The notes: generated from the letters alone by a model not told the origin. Positions 8,690 through 45,857 are shown, numbered from the stretch's first letter. The stretch is DNA of 64,000 bases from Oscillospiraceae bacterium (GCA_022793095.1 JAAWCD010000002.1:13037-77036), one strand, 5' to 3'. Made by a program: numbers and translations.

Positions 8690-8694
8690 CGTTT

Positions 8695-8735
8695 GTTCCT
8701 TTTCTTGAACGAAAAGGAACCGAACTTCAATCTGG
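8695..8735 (-). repeat. family A unit A1
   Basis: Plus strand: GTTCCTTTTCTTGAACGAAAAGGAAC (hairpin) + CGAACTTCAATCTGG (tail). Confidence 0.85.
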
Positions 8736-8755
8736 TTCTACCGGAAAATTCTCCA

Positions 8756-8798
8756 CAGCTTAAAGTTCTTTTGCTTCTTTTCTTTCAAGAAAAGGAGC
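8756..8798 (+). repeat. family A unit A2
   Basis: CAGCTTAAAGTTCTTTTG + GCTTCTTTTCTTTCAAGAAAAGGAGC. The stop codon of the FHA-SEDS gene (8785-8787) lies in the loop. Confidence 0.9.
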
Positions 8799-10521
8799 GG
8801 GGTCCAGGGGCGGAGCCCCTGGGCGGCAGGGGGATGGCGAAGCTGGCGTTCTGCCGGGTGTCGGTGGCTTTCAGGAAGGCCAGGAGGCCCCAGGAGGCCA
8901 GCATGGACGATCCGCCATTCGACACAAAGGGGAACGTTACCCCGGTCAGCGGCAGCAAATCCACCGCGCCGAACATGTTCAGGCAGACCTGAAAGACCAG
9001 CAGGGACATGGCCGCACAGGCCGCAATCGTGTAAAAGCTGGACCGGCCCGCCCGGCAGGCCCGGACCGCAAACACCGCCAGCGTCACAATGGACAGCGCC
9101 GCCAGCAGGGCGATCAGCAGCCCCCATTCCTCGCACAGCATGCCGAACACCAGGTCTGTGTCCGCCGCCGCCACCCGGTGGAGCCAGCCCTTTCCCGGCC
9201 CCACCCCAATCAGGCCGCCGGAGGCCGCCGCCGACATGGCTCTGGTCTGCTGATAGCCCCCGTCAGAGGCAAATTCCCACGCCCGGCCCCAGGTGGCAAA
9301 CCGGTTCATAATATACGGCTTAAACCGCAGAATCATGCCCCCGCCAAACACTGCCCCAGCACAGATCAAGGTCAGGGTGGCAAAGTCTCCGGAGCGCAAA
9401 AAAGCAATCACGAGAAAGGTGACAAAGAAAATCGCCGCTGTTCCGAAGTCGCTCATCAGCGCCAGGCAGAGCAGGGACAGCCCCGTCAGCACCATGAACA
9501 GCCCCAGATTCCGCTTCCGAAACAGCCGGTCCAGGGTGGCCGACCCGGCAAAAATGTAGCAGATCTTGGCCAGCTCCGAGGGCTGAAAGGACATTCCTCC
9601 AATGGAAATCCAGTTGGCCGCGCCATACTTGGCCTCCGTCAGCCCCACCGCCGACAGCACCAGCGTCAGTCCCAGCAGGCCCACCGCGCCCGCGGCCATG
9701 AGCCAGCGAATGGCCTGGACCCGCTTTAAGTCCCGCAGGAAAATGCCCAGCACCAAAAAGAGAAGCAATCCCAGCCCCACCGCAATGAGCTGCTTGAGCA
9801 GTGCGCCGGGCGCTGAGGACGCCGTAATCCCCAGGGAGAGGGTGGAGAGGAAGAAGGCCAGGGTCTCCATTTCAAAGCCCACCCGCCGCAGGGCCCGCTG
9901 AATCAGCACGTAGCTCCACATGAGCAAGGTCAGACAGAGAAAGGAAAAGGGAATGGCCGGGGAAAACTCCGGCCCGGCGGCAACCATCAGCTGGGCCGCC
10001 GTGAGCAGCTGGAAGACCGTGAGCAGCACCAGACTGCCCCAGTGGGGCCGGGCAGCCTCCGCGCTCCGGCGGGCGGAGCGGTAGCGCTCCTGTTCCTGTT
10101 CCGGAACCGCCCGTAACACGGTCTGAACGCCCCCCAGCTCAATAACATCCCCAAACCGGACCGGGGCAGAGGTCTCCACCCGCTTTCCGTTGACGGAAGC
10201 GCCGCCCTTGGAGCCCAGGTCGTAGAGGGTCCAGCCCCCATCTTCGGAGCGGATGAGGGCGGCGTGCTGCCGGGATACGGTGGGGTAGTTGAGCACCACG
10301 TCGGAGCGGGAGGAGCGGCCCAGAATGTTTTCCCAATGGCTCAGGGGCTGAAGGGCCCCGTTGGGCAGGGCGAGCTGCGCCCACAGCTCGGGAATGTGGG
10401 GGACCGTGAGCAGGTCCCGTATGACTCCGGCCAGCATGAGCACCGCCAGCACCGGAAAGCAGAACCGGACCACCGTGGTGAACATCGCCCCCGCCTCGGG
10501 CGACGAAAGCAGCCATTCCAA
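8785..10521 (-). CDS. FHA-domain / SEDS (FtsW/RodA/SpoVE family) fusion protein
   Basis: The N-terminal ~140 aa carry an FHA signature (ILGRSSRSDVVLNYPTVSRQHAALIRSEDGGWTLYDLGSKGGASVNGKRV). The rest is a polytopic SEDS-type protein. Start is TTG at 10521 or ATG at 10485. Confidence 0.88.
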   Translation of the reverse strand: MEWLLSSPEAGAMFTTVVRFCFPVLAVLMLAGVIRDLLTVPHIPELWAQLALPNGALQPLSHWENILGRSSRSDVVLNYPTVSRQHAALIRSEDGGWTLYDLGSKGGASVNGKRVETSAPVRFGDVIELGGVQTVLRAVPEQEQERYRSARRSAEAARPHWGSLVLLTVFQLLTAAQLMVAAGPEFSPAIPFSFLCLTLLMWSYVLIQRALRRVGFEMETLAFFLSTLSLGITASSAPGALLKQLIAVGLGLLLFLVLGIFLRDLKRVQAIRWLMAAGAVGLLGLTLVLSAVGLTEAKYGAANWISIGGMSFQPSELAKICYIFAGSATLDRLFRKRNLGLFMVLTGLSLLCLALMSDFGTAAIFFVTFLVIAFLRSGDFATLTLICAGAVFGGGMILRFKPYIMNRFATWGRAWEFASDGGYQQTRAMSAAASGGLIGVGPGKGWLHRVAAADTDLVFGMLCEEWGLLIALLAALSIVTLAVFAVRACRAGRSSFYTIAACAAMSLLVFQVCLNMFGAVDLLPLTGVTFPFVSNGGSSMLASWGLLAFLKATDTRQNASFAIPLPPRGSAPGPRSFS

Positions 10522-10538
10522 GAAAACGCCCCCTTTCT

Positions 10539-10583
10539 GTTCTTTTTCTTGAAAGAAAAAGAACCAAAAAGAACTTCAAATTT
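10539..10583 (-). repeat. family A unit A3
   Basis: GTTCTTTTTCTTGAAAGAAAAAGAAC + CAAAAAGAACTTCAAATTT. Confidence 0.9.
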
Positions 10584-10814
10584 AAATTTCACCGAATTAG
10601 AAACCACATAATGAATAAATTCTTCGATACAAGCAGGCTTACACTCCATACAGTTCAATATCATCAAAAAACCGTTGTTCAGCTTTCGTAGTCCTTCTGT
10701 CGAGGGCCCTCCCGACGTGTTTGATACCTATCGCCAAGCCGCCCATCGCGGGCGAAAAGAGAAGCGGCGGACCTCCGGAGGGCAACCGCCGTCCTGAAAG
10801 CCGCCGCAGTCCGC

Positions 10815-10872
10815 CAGCATAAAGTTCTTTTGCCTACTTTTCTTTCAAGAAAAGTAGGTCAAGAAAAGTAGG
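10815..10872 (+). repeat. family A unit A4 plus a 14-bp tandem copy of its 3' arm
   Basis: CAGCATAAAGTTCTTTTG + CCTACTTTTCTTTCAAGAAAAGTAGG (to 10858). TCAAGAAAAGTAGG is then repeated at 10859-10872. Confidence 0.9.
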
Positions 10873-11854
10873 AAATTTCGCCGGCCAGGTTGGTGGAGAA
10901 GCAGCGGCGAACCTCCTCCAGGCTGCTGGTCTGGCCCAGAATCCACATGAGCTTGGTGACCGCCGCCTCTGTCGTCATATCGCCGGTCTGGATGACCCCC
11001 TGATCCAGCGCCTTTTGGCCCGTCTGGTACAGGGAAAAGTCGCTCCGCTCATAAAGACACTGGGAGCATACCACCACCGCAATCCCCGCCGCCGTCATCT
11101 TATGAAGCTTGGAAATCAGGTCCCGCCGGATGAAGTGAAGCCCGCCCGCGCCAAAGGCCTCAATGACAATGCCCCGGTAGCGCATACGCAGCAGCATGTC
11201 AAAAATCTCCGGGTTCAGTCCGGGCGTCAACTTGATGAGAAACACATCCCGGCACAGCCGGTTCCGCAGAACGCAGGGTTCTCCGTCATGGACGGGCTGA
11301 ATGTGGAGATTCAGCCCGCTGCCGCTGACTGTGGCGGCCAGGGGCGCGTTCACGCTCTCGAAGGCGTCAAAGCCGGTGGTTTTGGTCTTCACCGCCCGGG
11401 TGCCCAGGATGATTTTCCGGTCAAAGGCCACAAAGACGCCGGGCACCCCGGAGGCCGCCATGGCCAGCGCTGCCCGCAGATTCTCCAGGGCGTCCGTCAG
11501 CGGGTGGTCAATGGAGAGCTGTGCCCCGGTCAGCACCACCGGGATGCCGATATGGAGCAGCATGAAGGACAGCACCGAGGCCGTATACGCCATGGTATCC
11601 GTGCCATGCGTGACCACAATGCCGTCAAAACGGTTTCGGGCCTCGTGAACGGCCCTGGCAATAACCTGCCACTCCTCCGGTTGGATGTTGGAGGAGTCCA
11701 GATGCAGAATGTCCCGCACTGTCAGCTCATAGTGATCCGCCATGGGGCCCAGCCGGTGGGCCATGGCGTCCCCGCCAATTCCCGGCGCCAGCCCCTCCAC
11801 AGTGGGAATCGAGGCAATGGTTCCGCCCGTCGTCAGCAAAAGCAGCCGCTTCAC
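10859..11854 (-). CDS. ansA: L-asparaginase (type I family)
   Basis: LLLTTGGTIAS threonine active-site signature near the N-terminus. The GTG at 11854 is preceded by AAAGGAGG. The track start at 11905 is upstream of the RBS. Confidence 0.88.
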   Translation of the reverse strand: MKRLLLLTTGGTIASIPTVEGLAPGIGGDAMAHRLGPMADHYELTVRDILHLDSSNIQPEEWQVIARAVHEARNRFDGIVVTHGTDTMAYTASVLSFMLLHIGIPVVLTGAQLSIDHPLTDALENLRAALAMAASGVPGVFVAFDRKIILGTRAVKTKTTGFDAFESVNAPLAATVSGSGLNLHIQPVHDGEPCVLRNRLCRDVFLIKLTPGLNPEIFDMLLRMRYRGIVIEAFGAGGLHFIRRDLISKLHKMTAAGIAVVVCSQCLYERSDFSLYQTGQKALDQGVIQTGDMTTEAAVTKLMWILGQTSSLEEVRRCFSTNLAGEISYFS

Positions 11855-11875: not shown

Positions 11876-11920
11876 GCCTCCTTTTCTTGAAGGAAAAGGA
11901 GGCAAAGAGCTTTAAACTGG
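11876..11920 (-). repeat. family A unit A5
   Basis: GCCTCCTTTTCTTGAAGGAAAAGGAGGC + AAAGAGCTTTAAACTGG. Confidence 0.9.
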
Positions 11921-11947
11921 TTCTATGGAAAGACGCTCTAAAGAGCG

Positions 11948-11992
11948 CGGTTTGAAGTTCTTTTCGGTTCTTTTTCTTCCAAGAAAAAGAAT
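11948..11992 (+). repeat. family A unit A6
   Basis: CGGTTTGAAGTTCTTTTCG + GTTCTTTTTCTTCCAAGAAAAAGAAT. Confidence 0.9.
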
Positions 11993-11998
11993 GGAAAC

Positions 11999-13093: not shown

Positions 13094-13290
13094 AAGGTTC
13101 CCCTCCTCTCTTGGGACAGTCTGAACAGGCGTTCACAGCTTGTCTGTAAATCAGCCAATATTCAGTATACCGGAGGAGACGGAATTCCACAAGAAAAAGT
13201 TTGCGCTGACAGAAAATCTTCACATCTCCTTTACATTTTCCAAAGCCCCGCCAGTGGAAGGCATGCCCTTTGCATCCATCCGAAGGGCGT

Positions 13291-14685: not shown

Positions 14686-14912
14686 CTTCTTTTCTTGTAA
14701 GAAAAGAAGCCAGCTTGTCGAAAAAGAGGAAATTAAAAATAGAATGACAAAACTGCGAGGGCTTTGAGTGGGGGGATAGTGTGAAAGGGGGGCGAAGCCC
14801 CCGCTTTCGCGTGCAGTCACCCGCCCGCAGGCGACTGATTTCGTCAGAATGACGAAATCAGCTTCAGGCTGTCGACTTTGTCGACAGCCTGAAGCAAAAG
14901 AACTTCAAACTG
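14686..14912 (-). repeat. family A unit A7, split by family B copy B1
   Basis: Hairpin CTTCTTTTCTTGTAAGAAAAGAAG at 14686-14709. The tail AAGCAAAAGAACTTCAAACTG at 14892-14912 is separated from it by the 181-bp insertion. Confidence 0.85.
14711..14891 (-). mobile_element. family B 180-bp MITE-like element, copy B1
   Basis: About 90% or more identical by eye to the copies at 19949 and 38584. Termini are CAGCTTGTCGA...TCGACAGCCTG. Flanked by AAGC at 14707-14710 and 14892-14895. Confidence 0.85.
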
Positions 14913-14939
14913 CCTTCTTTGGTCAATTTCCGTCAGAAT

Positions 14940-14981
14940 CAGTTTGAAGTTCTTTTCGTTTCTTTTCACTCTGAAAAGAGA
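14940..14981 (+). repeat. family A unit A8
   Basis: CAGTTTGAAGTTCTTTTCG + TTTCTTTTCACTCTGAAAAGAGA. It ends 1 nt before the stop codon at 14982. Confidence 0.85.
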
Positions 14982-19948: not shown

Positions 19949-20128
19949 CAGGCTGTCGAAAACGCGACAGCCTGAAGCTGATTTCGTCATTCTGACGAAA
20001 TCAGTCGCCTGCGGGCGGGTCACTGCACGCGAAAGCGGGGGCTTCGCCCCCCTTTCACACTTTCCCCCCACGCAAAGTCCTGGCCGTTTTGCCATCCTAT
20101 TTTAACTTTCCTCTTGTTCGACAAGCTG
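19949..20128 (+). mobile_element. family B 180-bp MITE-like element, copy B2
   Basis: CAGGCTGTCGAAAACGCGACAGCCTGAAGCTGATTTCGTCATTCTGACGAAATCAG...GTTCGACAAGCTG. Confidence 0.85.
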
Positions 20129-38554: not shown

Positions 38555-38583
38555 AAGCCCGGCAGCCAATTGACTGCCGGGCT
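38555..38583 (+). repeat. left copy of a 29-bp duplicated terminator hairpin flanking B3
   Basis: AAGCCCGGCAGCCAATTGACTGCCGGGCT versus 38764-38792 (28/29). Confidence 0.85.
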
Positions 38584-38763
38584 CAGGCTGTCGAGTTTCT
38601 CGACAGCCTGAAGCTGATTTCGTCATTCTGACGAAATCAGTCGCCTGCGGGCGGGTGACTGCACGCGAAAGCGGGGGCTCTGCCCCCCTTTCACACTATC
38701 CCCCCACTCAAAGCCCTCGCAGTTTTGTCATCCTATTTTTAATTTCCTCTTTTTTGACAAGCT
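38584..38763 (+). mobile_element. family B 180-bp MITE-like element, copy B3
   Basis: CAGGCTGTCGAGTTTCTCGACAGCCTGAAGCTGATTTCGTCATTCTGACGAAATCAG...TTTTGACAAGCT. Confidence 0.85.
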
Positions 38764-41167: not shown

Positions 41168-41207
41168 TGAAGTTTCCTTCTCCATTTTCGTTTGGACGTT
41201 GTTTATC

Positions 41208-41246
41208 GTTCTTTTTTGGTTCTTTTTCCTTCAAGAAAAAAGAACC
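41208..41246 (+). repeat. family A unit A16a (tail truncated)
   Basis: GTTCTTTTTTG + GTTCTTTTTCCTTCAAGAAAAAAGAACC. Confidence 0.75.
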
Positions 41247-41254
41247 GGCAGTTT

Positions 41255-41290
41255 CTCTTCTTTTCTTGAAGGAAAAGAACTTCAAACTGG
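41255..41290 (-). repeat. family A unit A16b (internal deletion)
   Basis: CTCTTCTTTTCTTGAAGGAAAAGAACTTCAAACTGG. Confidence 0.75.
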
Positions 41291-41304
41291 TTCGGAACTC
41301 CGGC

Positions 41305-45434: not shown

Positions 45435-45458
45435 GTAATAGCCTCCAAAGTTTCTTCC

Positions 45459-45501
45459 CTTCTTTTCTGGAATGAAAAGAAGCAAAAGAACTTCAAACTG
45501 G
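45459..45501 (-). repeat. family A unit A18
   Basis: CTTCTTTTCTGGAATGAAAAGAAG + CAAAAGAACTTCAAACTGG. Confidence 0.9.
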
Positions 45502-45595
45502 CGTACCGCGGCAGTTTTCAAGGAGCGCTTTGCCCTCAGGACGGCCCGGCGGGGTCATTGGGCTCTACAGAGCTGCGCTGACTGACAGATAACCG

Positions 45596-45639
45596 CAGTT
45601 TAAAGTTCTTTTTGGTTCTTTTTCTTTCAAGAAAAAGAC
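45596..45639 (+). repeat. family A unit A19
   Basis: CAGTTTAAAGTTCTTTTTG + GTTCTTTTTCTTTCAAGAAAAAGAC. Its last base is part of the yidD stop codon. Confidence 0.9.
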
Positions 45640-45857
45640 TAGGGAACAGGGTCGTACTCGATGGTCTTTTGCCGGTGAAAGGGGTGGCATTTGCTCAGCC
45701 GGCGCACCGCCAGCCAGCCGCCTTTCCAGAAGCCGTACTTTTCAATGGCTTCCAGAGCGTAGGCCGAACAAGTGGGAATAAACCGGCAACAGGGCGGACG
45801 GCTGGGGGACACGTTGGTCCGATACCAGCGAATCAGCCAAAGAATCAGCCGCTTCAC
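45639..45857 (-). CDS. yidD: membrane protein insertion efficiency factor YidD
   Basis: (V)KRLILWLIRWYRTNVSPSRPPCCRFIPTCSAYALEAIEKYG. The GTG at 45857 overlaps the rnpA stop (GTGA). Confidence 0.88.
   Translation of the reverse strand: MKRLILWLIRWYRTNVSPSRPPCCRFIPTCSAYALEAIEKYGFWKGGWLAVRRLSKCHPFHRQKTIEYDPVP

Follow-up and report, generated by a model that had tools for sequence, protein, structure and literature searches.

In the 64,000-nucleotide stretch of Oscillospiraceae bacterium DNA analysed here (GCA_022793095.1, JAAWCD010000002.1:13037-77036; hereafter the window, with positions counted from its first letter), the spacer between a LytR-CpsA-Psr (LCP) family gene and an L-asparaginase gene is occupied by two inverted copies, A5 and A6, of a short hairpin-bearing repeat termed family A. 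Gut Oscillospiraceae carry family A as a non-coding, high-copy repeat that resembles the repetitive extragenic palindromes (REPs), and the inverted pairs of family A are one composite inverted-repeat element with a fixed geometry, copied whole. Such doublets recall the REPINs, which are REP doublets forming hairpins, both in architecture and in the population behaviour of their copies. Family A is probably a non-autonomous repeat of the REP/REPIN type in which the doublet is copied as a unit with no target duplication, the mover is not a detectable REP-associated tyrosine transposase (RAYT) and the palindrome is kept at the DNA level.

The unit profile was built from 12 units of the window and searched with nhmmer throughout the genome, a 130-contig draft of 3.16 Mb with 59% GC that is 96.7% complete. 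The census yielded 742 non-overlapping units at E<=1e-3 (892 at E<=1), amounting to 32.6 kb or 1.03% of the genome. Each unit is 45-48 nt long; its 11-bp hairpin is A/T-rich and has a TGAA loop, and the 19-nt tail behind it reads (G/C)CAAAA(A)GAACTTTAAACTG. The hairpin is a high-copy imperfect palindrome of 26-28 nt, and its stem, CTTCTTTTTCT/AGAAAAAGAAG, is not G+C-rich. Watson-Crick pairs account for 93-99% at stem positions 2-10 and for 65% at position 11, with wobble pairs at 3% or less, and positions 7, 8, 10 and 11 covary. The outer stem falls into discrete subfamilies (CTTCTTTTTC, GTTCTTTTTC, GCTTTC, CTTCTTTTC, CCTACTTTTC and others). Concerning the age of the expansion, a 37-nt core is present in 272 genomic copies when up to 3 mismatches are allowed, of which no fewer than 97 are exact; it is missing from 40 relatives, all outside the genus, which points to a recent amplification.

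The evidence for a composite element comes from how neighbouring units are arranged. Where two units lie 50 nt or less apart, the arrangement is tail-to-tail in 121 cases, head-to-head in 9 and tandem in 16 (chi-square against 1:1:2, p about 2e-57). The gaps of the tail-to-tail class show a sharp peak at 21-28 nt, which gives 111 doublets, and 249 units were counted in tail-to-tail inverted pairs with a gap of that size. Random placement of the 742 units in intergenic DNA, repeated in 500 runs, produced 2.8 such pairs on average and 8 at most. The two tails of a doublet pair over a median of 17 bp, reaching at least 12 bp in 104 of the 111, and the resulting composite palindromes are 115-128 nt long. 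Their median minimum free energy (MFE) is -40 kcal/mol with a median z of -5.6, and z falls below -2 in all but three. An earlier note, made from the window sequence, had described convergent pairs with complementary tails, able to fold into a long stem flanked by the two local hairpins. This pattern extends to the whole genome, and both the tail complementarity and the foldable stem recur in it. Neither pair frequencies of the kind expected from independent insertion nor a lack of tail pairing in most doublets, the two outcomes that the note had set against its own proposal, is seen in the data, and the doublet is upheld because of its excess over random placement together with the pairing of its tails.

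Moreover, the doublets share more than their spacing. The spacer is homologous among them, semi-conserved (median pairwise identity 66%), self-palindromic and continuous with the tails, and 35-nt doublet centres taken from different contigs are 91-97% identical. With orientation assigned by MAFFT on what is a near-palindrome, the consensus is polar, its two ends differing systematically: tttntct-nctTTTCTTGAAAGAAAagnag-caAAAGAACTTtAAACTG-gTTCTACCGgaannnTgnCnnnAgaaCgCAG-tTTaAAGTTCTTTTTG-gTTCTTTTTCTTTCAAGAAAAAGAAc. The hairpins combined in a doublet are not drawn at random and are mostly heterotypic; in fact, GCTTTC is joined to GTTCTTTTTC in 20 doublets against 7.4 expected, and homotypic GTTCTTTTTC pairs number 0 against about 5 expected. 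Doublets also stand in tandem arrays at six places, including one triple on contig C21, and these arrays resemble the ordered REPIN clusters of Pseudomonas fluorescens. Arrays in which two or three near-identical doublets recur every 107-117 nt were located at C21:6674-7015, C53:98880-99106, C114:100989-101214, C102:8873-9090 and C44:4681-4901.

At the locus that opened the analysis, the left half of the doublet, unit A5 (11876..11921, + strand; nhmmer E 7e-13, together with the fold), is made up of the 11-bp hairpin GCCTCCTTTTC TTGAAG GAAAAGGAGGC and the tail AAAGAGCTTTAAACTG. The right half, unit A6 (11947..11993, - strand; nhmmer E 1.3e-12), starts with the inverted tail GTTTGAAGTTCTTTTCG and continues with the hairpin GTTCTTTTTCTTCCAAGAAAAAGAA. 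The central spacer between them (11922..11946; 25-30 nt) carries a small local hairpin, CGCTCT-AA-AGAGCG, at 11934-11947, a position that is held by GTTCTACCG...CGGTAGAAC in most doublets. A5/A6 folds into a hairpin, a tail/tail duplex and a second hairpin whether it is modelled as DNA (-32.6 kcal/mol, z -6.3) or as sense RNA (-41.5 kcal/mol, z -4.3), and none of 200 shuffles matched this fold.

The two flanking genes are encoded on the - strand: the LCP gene (LytR_cpsA_psr, PF03816; 11999..13093) upstream of the doublet, and the L-asparaginase gene (10859..11854, with a GTG start at 11854) downstream. From the LCP stop (11999) to the asparaginase GTG there are 144 nt, and 118 of them are taken up by A5/A6. 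A6 begins 5 nt past the LCP TGA stop, and A5, the distal half on the mRNA, ends 21 nt ahead of the GTG, with the Shine-Dalgarno sequence of the asparaginase gene immediately downstream. The spacer on the other side of the LCP gene (about 13094-13290, - strand) is repeat-free, is well conserved in relatives with 85-91% LCP identity (L015:470-650, L016:1480-1690) and includes a promoter-like TTGTGG-N17-TATACT.

All six pairs listed in the earlier note were recovered by nhmmer close to where it had placed them and with similar gaps. Doublet A1/A2 (8694-8736 on the + strand and 8754-8799 on the - strand, gap 17; MFE -36.5, z -4.6) lies between convergent genes, and an open reading frame (ORF) of the FHA-FtsW/RodA type (8785-10521, - strand) terminates at a TGA in the A2 hairpin loop. 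A3/A4 (10537-10580 on +, 10814-10858 on -) is a split or wide tail-to-tail pair with 233 nt of other sequence in the gap. Doublet A7/A8 (14686-14981) lies in an ATP-binding cassette (ABC) importer operon, as the note had said, between the binding-protein and permease genes. Its A7 half is interrupted at the junction of hairpin (14686-14711) and tail (14891-14915) by a 181-nt repeat, B1 (14712-14892). The A8 half matches at 14937-14967 (- strand), with a degenerate hairpin extending to about 14981, and the A7/A8 gap minus B1 is 21 nt. B1 measures 170-181 nt and has three copies in the window (14712-14892, 19960-20128 and 38583-38763) that are 92-95% identical. The context given for A18/A19 is likewise correct: this wide doublet (45456-45502 on +, 45593-45641 on -, gap 90) stands between yidD and yidC, downstream of rnpA. 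Finally, A16a/A16b (41207-41240 on -, 41257-41291 on +, gap 16) does have the opposite, head-to-head geometry, with its hairpins facing each other.

A18/A19 is one of 20 wide doublets with a gap of 74-92 nt and a second repeat, family G, in the centre; in A18/A19 this is a degenerate copy at about 45541-45570. Family G is a GC-rich palindrome, CTGTAGGGCCCGATGAGGTCATCGGGCCCTACAG, with 67 genomic copies against 1 for the reversed control, and its foot carries a GTAG/CTAC pair, as in classical GTAG REPs. For 40 of these copies the nearest A unit is no more than 100 nt away, and they often occupy the centres of wide doublets. The doublet centre tolerates insertions, as indicated by family G in the wide doublets and by B1 inside A7, and the nested repeats give the family A system the mosaic look of bacterial interspersed mosaic elements (BIMEs). 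Family G was also seen in a relative of the A5/A6 locus (L015:1800-1860).

Regarding the persistence of doublets, orthologous sites were compared at one locus in detail and at a second in outline. At A5/A6, relative L208 has the same doublet with a distal hairpin of CTGC/GCAG against CTCC/GGAG in the window. Relative L210 has the canonical spacer (ATTCTACCGGATGATTGGCGGTAGAAT), a perfect central stem AAGC/GCTT and a hairpin CCTAC/GCAGG with one mismatch. In L016 and L017 (85% LCP identity), the central stem reads AGGC/GCCT, the hairpin CCCC/GGGG, and both 10-nt tail repeats are missing. L015 (91% LCP identity) retains the distal half only, the rest and the spacer having been swapped for about 150 nt with a GC-rich hairpin. 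At the second site, the spacer between the binding-protein and permease genes, a doublet is present in L016 too. On this comparison, doublets persist at shared sites, their stems changing by compensation and their spacer varying freely, and singlets can arise through the loss of one half.

In a wider search, 150 other genomes of the family were scanned with a covariance model (R1); 22 of them, from about 21 genera, carry units. An exact 29-mer matched at least 120 metagenome contigs, several of which bear a human gut label, and 2 contigs of IMG/VR; two IMG/VR contigs (L076:4071-4097 and L077:1068-1094) each contain the family A core of 27 nt without mismatch. A 20-mer scan of genome contigs gave real units at 2 of 24 loci, the others being mostly chance matches. 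No tight doublet was found in 20 loci from four other genera or in 82 metagenome and viral loci with 128 units, where units stand alone or follow one another head-to-tail. At G123 loci L068 and L073, in another genus, the head-to-tail arrays have a period of about 110 nt. Besides this genome and its close relatives, only two metagenome-assembled genomes were seen to hold tight or wide doublets: one from an uncultured Oscillospiraceae (iMGMC-155), the other from an Oscillibacter sp. The singlets-only state of other genera and metagenomes suggests a tight doublet restricted to this lineage and close relatives of it. From this distribution, the singlet is the old and widespread module and the doublet a composite that expanded in this lineage.

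The preferred reading, that of a REP/REPIN-type repeat copied as a doublet, can be set out as follows. Two unlike units would have fused tail-to-tail about a palindromic spacer of 21-28 nt in this lineage, and the composite palindrome would have been copied and dispersed as one piece. The spread may have passed through a single-stranded or cruciform DNA hairpin intermediate, driven by a trans-acting enzyme other than a Pfam-detectable Y1/HUH transposase or by replication-linked template switching. The insertions left no target-site duplication, the direct repeats in the flanks having the same lengths as in a shuffled-pairing control, and this lack fits hairpin-based, single-strand mechanisms. 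The palindrome would then be kept intact by arm-to-arm or copy-to-copy conversion of DNA, and effects on the mRNA, such as the 17-bp intercistronic duplex or hairpins 0-12 nt after stops, may be a by-product. A more specific version can be offered tentatively: a RAYT-independent, REPIN-like replicator near its birth, in which a family-wide singlet became a heterotypic doublet and was amplified more than 100-fold, the agent possibly being a new enzyme acting on single-stranded DNA hairpins, or template switching, and the arms possibly being maintained by conversion.

Several observations weigh against the preferred reading, and the first group of them concerns the mover. The draft genome contains no cognate RAYT/Y1 gene (PF01797): its sole PF01797 match covers the first 38 positions, in a protein at the end of contig C69. 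That protein (C69:1-330) is an N-terminal fragment of a classical IS200 TnpA (MNTDIRSLSHSKWRCKYHIVFAPKYRRQ...), truncated by the contig end. The hairpins upstream of it are usual for IS200, and its left-end hairpin, CCCCCAGTTATACTGGGGG, is unlike family A. A Y1 gene is also missing from all five other unit-rich genomes, which are draft assemblies. TnpB (PF07282) is absent from the genome itself, and its one IS110 gene (PF01548) has no units nearby. The ten genes most densely flanked by units, together with the genes faced by tails in the window, are all housekeeping genes, leaving no candidate for a partner gene bracketed by units. A non-exhaustive search of the unit-bracketed genes found no parent insertion sequence (IS) with family A termini. 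However, a draft assembly such as this one could lack a partner gene present in a single copy. Furthermore, no precise pair of empty and filled sites was caught, and nine contigs from other samples that encode an identical LCP protein are identical at A5/A6.

The second group concerns where the units sit. Gene positions come from a home-made rough caller (2442 genes, 82% coverage), in which starts are the least certain; on this annotation 647 of the 742 units (87%) are intergenic. This location as such agrees with the preferred reading: the units are restricted to transcribed spacers, with densities per kb of 1.5 for co-directional, 1.63 for convergent and 0.35 for divergent gene pairs, a 4-5-fold depletion in the last. 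Most doublets start 0-12 nt past the upstream stop codon. In singlets the hairpin end follows a stop at a median distance of 4.5 nt or precedes a start by a median of 15.5 nt, and the tail end is 78-100 nt from the next gene. Hairpins that abut genes in this way are not explained by random insertion. The polarity of doublets also follows that of the flanking co-directional genes (54:25, p 0.0015); their orientation has no relation to GC skew (19/19/17/15). To these points must be added the compensating stem changes in four lineages at one shared site, which simple selfish decay does not predict. To account for such in-place compensation, one needs conversion between arms or between copies, replacement of the element in situ, or selection by the host. 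The caller also ended 64 ORFs within units, 37 of them near the hairpin-loop TGA (CTTGAAAG); the repeat therefore supplies the final codons and the stop of some genes.

The placement in transcribed spacers with depletion between divergent genes, the hairpin ends adjoining stop and start codons, the polarity that tracks transcription and not GC skew, and the compensating stems with a free spacer at one orthologous site all speak for a host-maintained intercistronic RNA module. In such a module the tail/tail duplex would be cut (e.g., by RNase III), as in the processing site between cistrons that the earlier note had suggested, and the outer hairpins, which directly adjoin the ORFs, would protect the upstream product at its 3' end and the downstream product at its 5' end. 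The 17-bp tail/tail duplex, as predicted, could plausibly serve as an RNase III substrate. By analogy with Escherichia coli, the gene upstream might also be translated less where a hairpin follows its stop by 15 nt or less, since REPs less than 16 nt from a stop codon are said to reduce translation there, as summarised in PMC12306157. However, the pairing itself is strand-symmetric, a point for the preferred reading. Among doublets flanked by co-directional genes (79 in all), the sense strand shows 164 G.U-type mismatches and 182 of the A.C type (G.U on the antisense), and wobble pairs are rare in the stems; as G.U does not exceed A.C, there is no sign of pairing selected on the transcript. 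Moreover, one third of the doublets have the opposite orientation, the many near-identical copies point to a recent burst in one lineage, and singlets suffice in other genera. No Rfam family matched the 64-kb window at the gathering threshold, and simple scans at the units found no promoter or terminator consensus above shuffles. Overall, the RNA module, though the main alternative, appears rather unlikely as the explanation of family A.

A classical REPIN whose RAYT is missing from the drafts, or has diverged too far for PF01797, would agree with several traits that match REPINs (PMC3116915): the architecture, the doublet excess, the placement outside genes, the clustering in tandem and the missing target-site duplication. 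The 130-contig state of a draft that is 96.7% complete leaves room for it, and GTAG is found within each spacer half, in CGGTAGAAC. Nevertheless, this explanation is improbable. The sole match in the genome is a typical IS200 TnpA, and none of the five other unit-rich genomes has a Y1 gene. Across 150 genomes of the family, Y1 matches occur in 7 of 22 unit-positive and 42 of 128 unit-negative genomes, an odds ratio of 0.96 that presumes the identical 150-genome sample in both counts. The GTAG lies 19-22 nt from the hairpin and not at its foot, and singlets are no more decayed than doublets. The earlier note had likened the pairs to REPINs, the units mobilised by RAYT transposases; the architecture and the copying as a unit bear this likeness out, and the link to RAYT is not supported by these results.

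The singlets raise another alternative, namely that doublets are rebuilt repeatedly as incoming singlets land beside resident ones, at a set distance from their tails. Singlets score a median of 42.8 bits against 44.1 for doublet units (p 0.22), with pairwise identities of 0.727 and 0.752, and half of a young subfamily of 91 copies with at most 2 changes is solo. Because singlets are equally conserved and this subfamily is half solo, singlets seem to spread alone, and other genera have singlets only. Repeated assembly has a slim chance all the same: the spacer is homologous and its variants recur across contigs with specific hairpin pairs, homotypic pairs are nearly absent, and the gap is fixed at 21-28 nt around a palindromic spacer that is continuous with the tails.

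An ordinary MITE (a miniature transposable element with inverted repeats) derived from an IS with a DDE transposase is very improbable, for although the elements are short and non-coding, have terminal inverted repeats and share the window with other MITE-like repeats (B1 and family C), target-site duplication does not exceed chance, which argues against a DDE-type MITE, and no longer element with the same ends or gene bracketed accordingly was seen.

What is understood about REPs and REPINs comes almost wholly from Proteobacteria, where a RAYT gene accounts for their spread. In the present case, about 1% of the genome of a Gram-positive anaerobe from the gut consists of a repeat that has REPIN architecture, and no RAYT is detectable. 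This makes a useful test case, in which singlets look as active as doublets, the doublet seems confined to one lineage with its close relatives and the singlet is found family-wide, and stems compensate at one site. Family A offers a natural system for the transition from REP to REPIN, for alternative movers and for the maintenance of palindromes at the DNA level. On the practical side, such repeats break short-read assemblies, give stops to the 64 called ORFs and could alter the fate of mRNA in operons.

Among known systems, the Correia elements of Neisseria and the ERIC (enterobacterial repetitive intergenic consensus) or IRU (intergenic repeat unit) sequences of enterobacteria are imperfect palindromes of 100-150 nt that are co-transcribed with genes, and cleavage of their long RNA hairpins by RNase III or RNase E has been reported. 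Family A is likewise an imperfect palindrome of the 100-150 nt class, and these elements are the precedent for the processing idea of the earlier note. Correia elements have TA target duplications and presumably derive from a DDE-type IS; family A, by contrast, has no target duplication.

Palindrome-associated transposable elements (PATEs), derived from IS200/IS605, have hairpins at both ends, make no target-site duplication and presumably move through single-strand intermediates. Family A shares the two end hairpins and the lack of target-site duplication. An IS200/IS605-derived PATE was considered as the origin of family A and rejected: the hairpin of the resident IS200, CCCCCAGTTATACTGGGGG, is unrelated to the end hairpins of family A, orientation shows no GC-skew bias, and TnpA is absent from the other unit-rich genomes.

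The REPs and BIMEs of E. coli resemble family A as mosaics of hairpin units and short motifs (here the spacer and the family G hairpin), and in lying between cistrons or at 3' ends, in many cases no more than about 15 nt from a stop. The sequence of family A is unrelated to theirs.

According to the survey of GTAG- and CGTC-tagged REPs by Di Nocera et al. (2013), in the passages concerned, these repeats occur as singletons, as homo- or heterodimers with 20-100-bp spacers and as clusters, and the spacers may have complementary ends or small stem-loops of their own (PMC3733652). CGTC REPs are said there to 'apparently lack a dedicated transposase' (PMC3733652). With respect to those passages, family A is alike in its singlets, spaced dimers, clusters and spacer stem-loops (PMC3733652), and the passages searched make no mention of Firmicutes or Clostridia (PMC3733652). 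Family A differs in having neither GTAG nor CGTC at the foot of the palindrome, GTAG being present only in the spacer, 19-22 nt off, and in a stem that is not GC-rich. No description of family A itself was found in the searchable literature.

The closest comparison is with the REPINs. In REPIN theory, singlets are decayed remnants; those of family A are as conserved as its doublet units. Family A also departs from REPINs in its A/T-rich stems in a 59% GC genome, in its Gram-positive anaerobic host, in a 19-nt tail that partly repeats its own stem arm, and in the lack of a detectable RAYT/Y1 gene here or in unit-rich relatives. On the other hand, the REPINs of P. fluorescens SBW25, described by Bertels & Rainey (2011) as inverted REP doublets associated with a RAYT transposase, share with it the inverted units that form a long hairpin with a short spacer, the doublet excess, a position outside genes, clusters of near-identical doublets in tandem and insertion without target-site duplication (PMC3116915). 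Family A is a RAYT-less variant of the REP/REPIN-type repeats.

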